From Paludibacteraceae bacterium (GTDB lineage: Bacteria; Bacteroidota; Bacteroidia; Bacteroidales; Paludibacteraceae): a DNA stretch of 64,000 bases. Positions 15,764 through 18,184 of this stretch are shown in pieces (positions within the stretch are counted from its first letter, which is position 1; the number at the start of each line of letters is the position of its first letter). The translations under genes and the position numbers were made by a program. The stretch lies in contig JAFYSK010000051.1 in the NCBI GenBank assembly GCA_017559385.1, positions 25,778-89,777 of the forward strand, given 5' to 3'. Below the pieces are notes generated by a model. That model was given only the letters and a program-made list of their open reading frames with translations, was not told the origin of the DNA and made no database searches.

Positions 15764-16870
15764 TTATCTCAACTGCATGGTATAATATAGTCCAATAGTG
15801 TCGCCTGATTGTACCTTCTGTAGGTCTTGTAATATGCGTTCGGGGTGAACGGTGCCTGACTCCCAAAAGTCATTGGCTCCAGAGGCTAGCGTGCGGCGAC
15901 GGAAATTATAAACATGGCCTGTCTGAAAGGCTTTGAACCATGTGTGCTTTTGGTCAATAGATGACAATTCTGCCATACTATTTGCTTCGCATCCGACCCA
16001 CACATCAGCTTCGGCAAAGTCTTGCAAGGCTTGCTCTATAGTCAGCGGAATGGATGTTGTAGATGGATTGTCCTCGTACTGATATTGTGCGCCAGCATCG
16101 CGGAAGAGGTGGCCCATGAATGTTCCTCCCGTAGGTACATACCATGTTCCTCGCCACGACATTCCGGACATGATGCTCGCTTTGCGAGTGTTCAGTAGCC
16201 CTGCGGGCTGTTCAGAATGGTTCAATGCTTCGCGTTCAGAGTTGCCTTTTCGCCTCATCGCCTCATCGCCTTTCAACTGCTCATATGCGTCTCTGACACT
16301 CGCGTATATACTATCCGCCATTGACTGGCAGCCGAAGATAGCCCCGAAGAAGCGTATCCATTCTGCCCGCTTGAGTGGGGTGGTTTCTGTCCATTCATTG
16401 CAATAAAAGACAGGAATACCCAATGCCTCAATCTGTCCTGGCACCTGATCACCTTCGGCATAGGTGGAGATGATTACTGCATCGGGTTTGGCGAGCAGAA
16501 TAGCTTCCATATTAGGCTGAATGTCATCGCCAATGTCTATCATAGTCTTGCGTTGCTCATCGCTAAGGTTATAGATGCGATTGGGGCGACATACCCCAAT
16601 GACCTTGTCCATCAAACCTAGTTCGTGCATAAAACCCATATGCGTGGCAGAAGTGCATATGACGCGTTCTAAAGGGCGAGTCATTGCATATTGCGCCATC
16701 ACTTCCCCTTGTTGCCATGGCGAGTGAATCGTAATGTGCGTAGTATCGCCCGACTGAGCAATATCAAAGCCTGCGGTATCATCCGATGCGGGTGAACTAA
16801 CTATAGGTTGGCATGCCGTGCACACCAACCCAAGTAAGCACAATGCTATGTGAAATTGTATTTTGAGCAT
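15764..16870 (-). CDS. Periplasmic-binding-protein type 2 (BtuF / siderophore-type) ABC substrate-binding lipoprotein
   Basis: Lipobox LVCTAC and a Peripla_BP_2-like layout (..[23 protein letters not shown]..). It carries the in-frame repeat at 16190-16270. Confidence 0.8.
   Translation of the reverse strand: [368 protein letters not shown]
16190..16244. repeat. 55-nt element, copy A (inside a CDS)
   Basis: gttcagtagccctgcgggctgttcagaatggttcaatgcttcgcgttcagagttg. It differs at 4 positions from copy B. Confidence 0.9.
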
Positions 16871-16912
16871 ATGTAAGTCCCTCCCTTAGAGGGAGAGATT
16901 TAGGGTAGGCTT

Positions 16913-18184
16913 TTAAATTACCTTCAATTCACTTCCTGGGAAATAGTGCGCTAAGATTTGCTCGTAGGTATAGCCCTTGTCTGCCATGACGGCTGCACCA
17001 ATTTGGCACAAACCTACACCGTGTCCCCAGCCTGCACCCGTGAGGATGAAGTCGCCATTCTCGTTGCGATCTACTACAAAGGCACTACTGTACAAGTGGC
17101 TCTTGCTCAACCATTTGCGAATTTCTAACTCCTTGCCAATCACCATCGTGCGCTTGCTACCTACAATCTGCATCTCGTACAAACGAGCAGAAGGACCGCG
17201 CTTGATAGGCACTAAGTCAATGATCTCGCCAAAGTCAATACCCGAACGCTCGCGGATAATCTCGCTCAGCTCCTCTTTGGTATATTGTACCGTCCAGCGG
17301 TAGAAATCCTTGGTCTCTTGGTCGTAGTTGTTGAGGACTTGGCTGAGGATGCGCTCGTCGGTGGTATTGCAATAAGCCGAAGGCGAGGTACGGATAAACG
17401 CCTGCGCATTCTCCTCAATAGTCAAATCGGGTAGGGGAGTGCCAATCTCGTCACGAACAGGCTCTAGGTAGTCATAGTGCTCGTTTGCCCATGCGTTTTC
17501 AAAGAGTTCGGTCGCACCACCACATGCCTTGTAGAAGCGTGCGTCGCACACCTTGCCGTCGTACATAAGCACTTGTCCACGGGTGGCATCGATAGCTTTT
17601 TGTACATTAGCAGCAGCCTCTGGGTGCTCATCACGACGGGTGATACCCTCGTAGCGTTGGCAGTGGTCGTCAGCGCATACATCAAAGCCCTCGTGCGCGT
17701 CACGCTCATACCAAACGATGTGCTCGCTTTCGCTCGCGTTCAGTAGCCCTTCGGGCTGTTCAGTGTGGTTCAGTGCTTCGCGTTCAGAGTTGTTCGATGT
17801 TGAACTATTTTGAACTACCGTTGAACAATGTTGAACCGCATTTTGCGGATGCAAAATGGGTTTGAGTACCCAGCTGCGGGAGATAACGGCGTGTGCTTTC
17901 AAGAGCTCCAACGATGAGGTAGCTGACATCTCGGAGGTGATAACCGAACTGAGGTAGTCTTCTACATCGAGGCGGTTGATGGCAGTCTGTGTGCCATCTG
18001 CATTGTCGCGTATTTCAAGTGTACCTTCAAACTCTTGGTCTTCCAAACGATCCCAGTGGAAACCAATACCAATGCGGACATTCTTCAATAGGAAGGTTGG
18101 ATGTTCTGGAGTAGAGTGAGGACCTGGTATAACGGCCTCAATCTTTGGGGCGGTCATTACGCCCACAGCAATTTGGTGTTTCAT
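16913..18184 (-). CDS. SpoIID/LytB domain-containing protein
   Basis: ...AHAVISRSW...[14 protein letters not shown]...[17 protein letters not shown]... core motifs. Confidence 0.88.
   Translation of the reverse strand: [423 protein letters not shown]
17738..17792. repeat. 55-nt element, copy B (inside a CDS)
   Basis: gttcagtagcccttcgggctgttcagtgtggttcagtgcttcgcgttcagagttg. Confidence 0.9.

Follow-up and report, generated by a model that had tools for sequence, protein, structure and literature searches.

A dispersed repeat of phased GTTCA/TGAAC words, intergenic and in frame within unrelated genes of a gut Bacteroidales bacterium

A word-array repeat in genes and spacers

The stretch of DNA analyzed in this work, 64,000 nt long and hereafter called the window, belongs to the metagenome-assembled genome (MAG) of a Paludibacteraceae bacterium from the gut (Bacteroidales; GCA_017559385.1, contig JAFYSK010000051.1); all coordinates refer to it, and it was compared with 8-kb loci of related MAGs and metagenomes (the L-numbered loci, such as L001 and L125). 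Two neighbouring genes of its minus strand share a short repeat, read in frame in both, which belongs to a dispersed family made of GTTCA words and of their inverted counterpart TGAAC. One of them (16913-18184) codes for a protein of 423 aa with a SpoIID/LytB domain (Pfam SpoIID, E 1e-24; NCBIfam SpoIID_LytB), and the other (15764-16870) for a substrate-binding lipoprotein of 368 aa belonging to the Peripla_BP_2 family (Pfam E 1.5e-23); the label "BtuF-like", given to the latter in an earlier note on this DNA, is backed as far as the family and no further.

The earlier note had described two 55-nt copies differing at four positions, placed in the same orientation and frame within the two minus-strand genes, together with a shared peptide, a small GC hairpin, and a 19-nt core recurring inverted in a spacer, and all of these points were borne out. 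Indeed, on realignment the plus-strand segments 16190-16244 and 17738-17792 (the latter within SpoIID) are both 55 nt long and identical at 51/55 positions, the mismatches being G/T, A/T, A/G, and A/G, so the similarity persists under proper alignment, and a repeat finder widens the pair to 64 nt with 88% identity (16181-16244 and 17729-17792). Both copies, translated in the one frame and orientation that they share, yield NSEREALNH(S/T)EQP(A/E)GLLN, and both carry the AGCCC-N3-GGGCT hairpin (16197-16209 in copy A, that of the binding protein, and 17745-17757 in copy B, that of SpoIID). Three occurrences of the 19-mer TGAACGCGAAGCRYTGAAC were counted in the window, at 16220-16238 (minus), 17768-17786 (minus), and 24725-24743 (plus), where none is expected from 100 dinucleotide-preserving shuffles.

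The pair of 55-nt segments exists, but the repeated unit is larger than was claimed. The full element spans about 110 nt and is quasi-palindromic: one arm holds three to five GTTCA words at a spacing of 10-11 nt, and on the other side of the centre TGAAC words make up the inverted arm, laid out as TGAAC-GCGAAGCRY-TGAAC-N5-TGAAC-(5-bp GC hairpin)-TGAAC. A full element is embedded in SpoIID (copy B; 17735-17842, minus; nhmmer E 8.6e-27), with GTTCA words starting, on the plus strand, at 17738, 17758, 17768, and 17782, TGAAC words at 17801, 17811, 17822, and 17832, and the 19-nt core at 17768-17786. Another one is intergenic (copy C; 24665-24779, plus; E 3.1e-31), is oriented opposite to A and B, and lies between the stop of a GT2 gene (24788-26212, minus) and the start of a DUF4922 gene (23749-24681, minus); its GTTCA words start at 24676, 24686, 24696, and 24706 and its TGAAC words at 24725, 24739, 24749, and 24768. 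Copies B and C align along the whole ~110 nt, C being the mirror image of B. The two coding copies resemble each other but are not equal: copy A represents the right (TGAAC) arm only, as a 63-nt insertion (16179-16241, minus; E 3.5e-16) with GTTCA words on the plus strand at 16190, 16210, 16220, and 16234, and it is fused to an array of the 8-nt unit AGGCGATG. The spacing of the words is exactly common to the three copies, and the hairpin varies between copies in a compensatory manner (AGCCC/GGGCT, AGCGC/GCGCT, GGCGC/GCGCC).

A profile built from 17 members of the family and run on the window with nhmmer gave exactly four matches, at 24665-24779, 17735-17842, 16184-16295, and 2212-2307. The fourth, which the earlier note did not contain, is a diverged copy (2203-2322, minus) in an RseC-family open reading frame (ORF; 1922-2452, minus); it contains words of both types, GTTCA and TGAAC, its hairpin (2273-2285) is GGCGC/GCGCC, and it encodes VQLVQSGSKAQSAVQDGSKLSSEETTTLNNVEQ. 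Its hairpin-bearing arm is opposite in orientation to that of the SpoIID copy, and the idea that all genic copies share a single orientation was rejected on this ground. Counting both GCGAAGC and its complement, GCTTCGC, the heptamer appears 17 times in the window, whereas a first-order Markov model predicts 5.2 +/- 2.4; 7/17 of these occurrences fall within repeat elements. In the GTTCA/TGAAC element, GCGAAGC is part of the core, and GCGAAAGC or GCAAAGC is found at the right end. The RNA fold of copy C has a z-score of -4.7; no Rfam family matched at gathering thresholds across the whole window, and a scan for intrinsic terminators and promoters returned nothing at the elements.

The inserts coincide with breaks in the alignments of the host proteins to solved homologues. 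Residues 64-208 of SpoIID cover only 95 positions of the Pfam profile, and in the alignment with PDB 4rwr residues 113-191 of the query fall outside the aligned blocks, the break lying between chain residues 106 and 143. The variable loop of this protein (L111-H155; 135 nt, 17720-17854, minus) is wholly derived from the repeat. The profile matches of the binding protein to PDB 6all and 4hn9 end at residue 201-202, that is, at the start of a 99-nt cassette (16175-16273, minus; residues ~200-232) composed of the 8-nt array (16244-16273, read as GDEAMRRKG) and then of the half element. The Pfam RseC_MucC match, in turn, takes 160 residues to cover 122 profile positions.

The 8-nt array type (AGGCGATG / GCCTCATC) is found inside three genes, those for RseC (2046-2089, minus; GCCTCATCGCC-type, encoding MGDEATGLLGDEAKRE), for the binding protein (16244-16273), and for the DUF4922 protein (23942-23985, minus), each time less than 1 kb from a GTTCA/TGAAC element; two of the genes read it as GDEA..., while in the DUF4922 gene the other strand is read, as ASSPNSLIASSP. 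The ATG of the DUF4922 ORF overlaps the terminal TGAAC word of copy C (A-TGAAC, 24676-24681); residue 10 of this protein is also a Met and the Pfam match covers it from residue 13 on, so the true start may be located downstream. Beside the binding-protein gene lie two tandem paralogous genes coding for membrane-anchored AraC-type (HTH_18) regulators (13365-14495 and 14528-15643), which are kept in place in L001 and L127, other genes being found there in L004, L124, L125, and L126.

Beyond the window, a scan of GTDB species representatives retrieved at least 119 stretches with the 19-nt core, mostly from Bacteroidota MAGs, with Paludibacteraceae, Bacteroidales, Lentimicrobiaceae, Prolixibacteraceae, and Flavobacteriales among the matches listed; some of the matches in other phyla are chance codings of EREALN. 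Long intergenic arrays of the words, often as pairs of inverted arrays, are present in many of these genomes, and close relatives (MAGs and metagenomes) harbor the full element at several intergenic sites. For the subfamily with the AGCCC hairpin, a metagenome scan retrieved four loci only, one intergenic site included. A further host gene came to light in three MAGs (L007, L093, and L102), where the element lies in frame in a PriA of 784 aa, as an insert of ~37 residues (...VQYSSTVVQHSSKLSSEEKTILNYIEREALNHAEQVETPKT...) relative to the PriA of Klebsiella (PDB 4nl4), where it falls between residues 304 and 312; SpoIID, the binding protein, and this PriA of related MAGs have the EREALN peptide in common. 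A word-indexed search with the peptide gave no candidate for other host proteins. The finding of the earlier note is real, and its proposal of a family of spacer repeats tolerated as in-frame coding insertions is supported by the four copies of the window, by the intergenic sites of the relatives, and by the intergenic arrays of many Bacteroidota genomes.

Length polymorphism and identical cassettes

The alignments of orthologous sequences show that the inserts are not ancestral. No homologous conserved segment is present in the orthologues, and at these sites short, unrelated loops are found in proteins with 87-97% identity; these alignments led us to discard the reading as a conserved loop of ancient origin. 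The proposal of the earlier note has thereby withstood both of the refuting checks set out in it, the other being the persistence of the nucleotide similarity on realignment. The SpoIID orthologues at least 86% identical to that of the window are 396, 407, 415, 423, or 426 aa long. The commonest form, of 396 aa (one cluster has n=1607), has an unrelated loop of 18 residues (54 nt), ISPSTGTDKPDLS(N/D)PDRH, in place of the 45 residues found in the window. The binding protein has alleles of 346-372 aa, the shortest of which reads QLKVDSLKFKGKSIMSG at the site, and for both proteins length variation was found among proteins 66-98% identical. Filled alleles form clusters of 30 and 70 members from many samples, and they recur in independent ENA, JGI, and NCBI assemblies, which led us to reject an assembly artefact.

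Filled and empty sites are found in all four combinations across the assemblies: both sites are filled in the window and in L124, only SpoIID in L001 (and likewise in L127), only the binding protein in L125, and neither in L004. The comparison of filled with empty or array-only DNA of the binding-protein gene delimits a clean block of 63 nt (16179-16241) between GGCAA and GAGCATC, and at this junction (GGCAA|...|GAGCATC), the sole clean one between a filled and an empty allele, no target-site duplication is visible.

The sites differ in more than presence or absence of the element. At least five array-type alleles occupy the SpoIID site between the same boundaries, namely the full element, the element lacking 24 nt through a deletion between two GAAC words (L001), a form (L137) with the same deletion and a 33-nt duplication of three GTTCA units, a cassette (L136) in which CAAC words are accompanied by GCGAAGC, GCAAAGC, and GTGCAGC mini-hairpins, and a short loop without repeats. 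At least six are found at the binding-protein site, where the "empty" allele is itself a 7-nt array (AGTTGAA AGTTGAT AGTTTAA AGTTTAA), and the array types LNNATQP and GDEA recur in unrelated genes.

An analogous case was observed in the gene for an RnfB-like Fe-S protein (818-1741, minus), where a 9-nt array (TGAAACTCC x4.7, at 848-889) encodes the C-terminal tail EVSGVSGVSEVS. The members of its 90% identity cluster measure 307-327 aa and have unrelated array-encoded tails (NNATQPLNNATQ..., AEVKGERLEVKGE..., APAAPKAAP...); this turnover of the tails corresponds to the same behaviour as that of the SpoIID and binding-protein sites.

The filled alleles can also be compared with one another. The binding-protein cassette of the window and that of L125 are identical at 99/99 nt, whereas the flanks and the rest of the gene are 72% identical. 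Similarly, the 135-nt loop of SpoIID is identical at 135/135 nt between the window and L127, with flanks 91% identical; among the filled alleles as a whole, this loop is 98.5-100% identical against 89-91% for its flanks. The patch of high identity is limited to ~120 nt. The orthologous intergenic copy behaves less regularly, being identical at 90/91 positions to that of L008, with one flank at 75%, but only at 79/91 to that of L079, where the flanks reach 92-94%; these patchy identities suggest mosaic recombination rather than a uniform constraint. Judging from these sequence comparisons, the identical cassettes mean a recent transfer between diverged lineages, which might have occurred via short-patch recombination or via something more directed.

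Frame constraint and origin of the insertions

The words of the TGAAC arm stand at offsets 0, 14, 24, and 44, and their TGA closes two of the three sense frames. The frame common to SpoIID and the binding protein can be accounted for in this way, because the one reading ...SEREALN... is the only sense frame free of TGA. Copy C has stops in all six frames. Over a 100-nt core, an open frame is present in 9/17 members of the family, against a proportion of 0.55 obtained by shuffling, that is, as by chance, which implies that the family itself keeps no ORF and that coding is not what the element is built for. The antisense frame that is open would give a Cys-containing peptide with a grand average of hydropathicity (GRAVY) of -0.03, versus -1.03 for the sense frame. 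The inserts have GRAVY values of -1.45, -1.09, and -0.67, whereas the rest of each protein has -0.16, -0.36, and +0.46, respectively, and the coincidence with alignment breaks noted above holds for SpoIID, the binding protein, and PriA. AlphaFold2 models from shallow alignments had a mean predicted local distance difference test (pLDDT) score of 51 and 44, too poor to judge surface exposure.

Based on these data, we suggest, with a probability of about 0.7, that this is a dispersed, non-coding family of intergenic repeats whose copies occasionally end up in genes, where selection keeps those that are tolerated. According to this model, a non-autonomous repeat, normally residing in spacers, would be copied into a gene by recombination or template switching, with no transposase of its own, and the copies that survive would be those that fall in a dispensable surface loop or tail, have a length multiple of three, and offer a stop-free, hydrophilic frame; the inserts would then be neutral passengers. 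The EREALN peptide common to SpoIID, the binding protein, and PriA would accordingly reflect this selective filter and not a coding function of the element. Once inserted, the arrays would change by slippage or recombination between words, undergoing in-frame deletions and duplications or replacement by other array types, and it is this ongoing change that would turn the sites into length-polymorphic hot spots. Lastly, the filled alleles probably spread between diverged lineages through short-patch homologous recombination.

Several points weigh against this proposal. Copying by recombination or template switching is what we infer for the origin of the inserts. The placement in surface loops is suggested by hydropathy and by the breaks in the profile and PDB alignments. 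For the source genome, the evidence covers the 64-kb window. At the SpoIID site there is neither a target-site duplication nor a clean empty site, and the loop looks replaced rather than simply interrupted. Finally, the patch of identity is tighter than casual recombination predicts, and this could indicate a targeted transfer or a selection acting at the nucleotide level.

A more far-reaching idea is that Bacteroidota carry a hitherto undescribed class of word-array repeats, with phased words of 5-7 nt interleaved with GNA-loop mini-hairpins, and that an active process writes or exchanges these cassettes at defined hot spots, among them loops and tails of housekeeping proteins; we consider it speculative and rather improbable. 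If it were true, identical cassettes would pass between lineages diverged by 10-30% and generate a rapid polymorphism of protein length, the driver being a putative word-binding protein or a mechanism involving single-stranded DNA.

Another reading, which we regard as unlikely, assumes an active, site-preferring cassette, either the word-array element or the whole loop cassette, moved by a dedicated protein that recognizes the phased GTTCA words and delivers it repeatedly to the same hot spots in different lineages. The identities just described (99/99 nt against flanks of 72%, 135/135 against 91%, in a patch of ~120 nt) are what such a mobile unit would produce, several array cassettes do share identical boundaries at both sites, the LNNATQP and GDEA array types are shared with unrelated genes, and the phasing of the words at 10-11 nt resembles that of arrays of protein-binding sites. 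However, neither a transposase nor a recombinase was found beside or between the arrays (L028, L031), no target-site duplications were seen, the orthologous intergenic copy is patchily conserved (90/91 versus 79/91), and the adjacent flanks are conserved in all alleles, so that ordinary short-patch recombination may be sufficient. The related possibility of a transposon bounded by arrays was rejected, since the DNA lying between the inverted array pairs of L028 and L031 encodes M23 peptidases and no transposase. As for a link with phages, a scan of viral contigs yielded no evidence of one, giving only chance matches coding for EREALN and one array.

It might also be imagined that copy A was made locally from copy B, which shares its orientation and lies at a distance of 1.5 kb, through microhomology-mediated template switching or ectopic gene conversion. 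A and B are indeed, if marginally, the closest pair, with 45/49 identities over the common arm against 41-43/49 with the intergenic copies of the L128 type, and microhomology is present at either junction, the left one reading CAA|CTCTGAAC and the right one AAAGC|GAGCA, with the right-hand GAGCATC being native to the empty allele of the binding protein; moreover, the similarity runs past the last word in a different frame, which speaks for an origin at the DNA level. Nevertheless, the other members of the family follow by a small margin, A and B diverge over their last 10 nt, where a 1-nt indel is found, and the two insertions segregate independently, A being present without B in L125 and B without A in L001 and L127, all of which makes this scenario doubtful.

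It is very improbable that both proteins gained the peptide as a functional motif under selection (for instance a linker or an interaction motif), for although the peptide is identical over diverged binding-protein backgrounds and filled alleles are found in many samples (clusters of 30 and 70), the same DNA lies between genes with stops in every frame, the hosts (SpoIID, binding lipoprotein, RseC, PriA) are functionally unrelated and belong to different compartments, insert-free orthologues are far more numerous (e.g., the 396-aa SpoIID cluster, n=1607), other strains have unrelated array-encoded peptides instead, and no such module appears among 1.84 billion representative proteins. The phmmer search on which this last statement is based returned 0 matches; the shortness and the biased composition of the query probably limited it, and the cluster representatives probably do not carry the insert.

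Relation to known elements and to other repeats of the window

The earlier note considered the in-frame repeat to be inexplicable by ordinary gene features; this view does not hold, in that in-frame occurrence of intergenic palindromic repeats is documented both for Rickettsia palindromic elements (RPEs; PMC10969869) and for repetitive extragenic palindromic (REP) sequences (PMC3733652). The phenomenon is the one seen in RPEs and in intragenic REPs, yet the present family belongs to neither. As far as the summary in PMC10969869 of the work of Ogata et al. (2000) describes them, RPEs are dispersed palindromic repeats of ~100-150 bp, inserted in frame in unrelated housekeeping genes in a lineage-specific manner, with a peptide compatible with the fold of the host protein and no transposase of their own; its account also has the copies, mostly intragenic, each encoding a conserved peptide ORF. 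The likeness lies in the presence of the same repeat in frame in unrelated genes (SpoIID, Peripla_BP_2, and RseC in the window, PriA in L007, L093, and L102) and in insertions which, according to both protein and DNA alignments, are absent from the orthologues and leave the host genes intact. The Bacteroidota family differs in being mainly intergenic with no conserved ORF (9/17 open, as by chance), in its two inverted arms of phased 5-nt words with mini-hairpins, in its rapid turnover of alleles, and in the phylum that harbors it.

The REPs described by Di Nocera et al. (2013; PMC3733652) are mostly intergenic; those lying within genes encode 20-30 aa, up to 82 aa when clustered, many of them are located in replication and repair genes, and they often form inverted dimers. 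The genic insertions reported here, which include one in the replication gene PriA, recall this behaviour. REPs, however, are single hairpins of 20-40 bp with a GTAG/CGTC tag and are tied to RAYT (REP-associated tyrosine) transposases (PMC3733652), whereas the hairpin of our elements has only 5 bp and the repeated unit is an array of 5-nt words; GTAG precedes the hairpin in A, B, and L128-131, ATAG does so in C, L008, and L079, and L005 and L016 have no tag.

[quoted passage not shown] In the elements of the window, in contrast, discrete terminal inverted repeats are absent and no target-site duplication is visible, the arms are themselves tandem arrays, and no parent insertion sequence was found between the inverted array pairs of L028 and L031.

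The mini-hairpins d(GCGAAGC) and d(GCGAAAGC) are known as extraordinarily stable DNA structures (Hirao; PMC13037366), with roles in the single-strand origins of phages and plasmids and in the promoter of phage N4; the same review (PMC13037366) assigns none to dispersed bacterial repeats. Both motifs occur in our element, in which the hairpins are putative. A diversity-generating retroelement was also considered and rejected, given that the differences between copies are not adenine-specific and that many copies exist instead of a template/variable pair; a Pfam scan of six neighbouring ORFs revealed no reverse transcriptase. We found no description of the family in the literature searched, and the broader class of Bacteroidota repeats combining phased word arrays and GCGAAGC mini-hairpins in spacers appears not to be described there either.

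The invasion of genes by intergenic repeats of a selfish or structural nature, for which Rickettsia and some Proteobacteria have provided most of the known cases, is extended by these data to gut Bacteroidales. The affected genes are conserved ones (SpoIID, PriA, RseC, and the binding lipoprotein) and are polymorphic between strains; their insertion sites represent natural experiments on loops that tolerate 20-45 extra residues, and they are strain markers as well as places where artefacts of annotation and alignment arise in metagenomes. More generally, phased word arrays with GCGAAGC mini-hairpins fill many intergenic spacers across the Bacteroidota.

The window harbors other repeats as well. 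Two intergenic ones (1780-1921 and 41125-41200) share the layout of the GTTCA/TGAAC family but use different words, and consist of GTTAGA words followed by inverted GGTCTAAC words, with interleaved GC mini-hairpins (gccgcctagcggc, agccgaaggcgg, cagcgaagcgg). Tandem arrays with a period of 7-21 nt fill most of the intergenic spacers (6054-6129, 19673-19707, 23240-23518, 26248-26341, 28360-28441, 29546-29620, and 40994-41081), with units such as TAACCTA x11, CTCCTAAAA x8, and GCACAATAAAT x6, at a density unusually high for a bacterial genome. A separate family of 66-nt repeats (23337-23402, 43906-43971, and 43973-44038) has a conserved head, GTTCTTAGCCRCAAGGGCACGATARCGCTTCGCTC, which contains GCTTCGC, followed by variable 11-nt arrays of TCTCTCGGTCG or TCCTTCGGAGT. 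The 473-nt spacer separating the RseC gene from its neighbour contains a 154-nt unit duplicated in tandem (2507-2806; 95% identity) that has no match in Rfam. Lastly, two adjacent genes (44158-46485 and 46495-48789), coding for proteins of 775 and 764 aa, are paralogous and share 70-77% DNA identity over most of their length.

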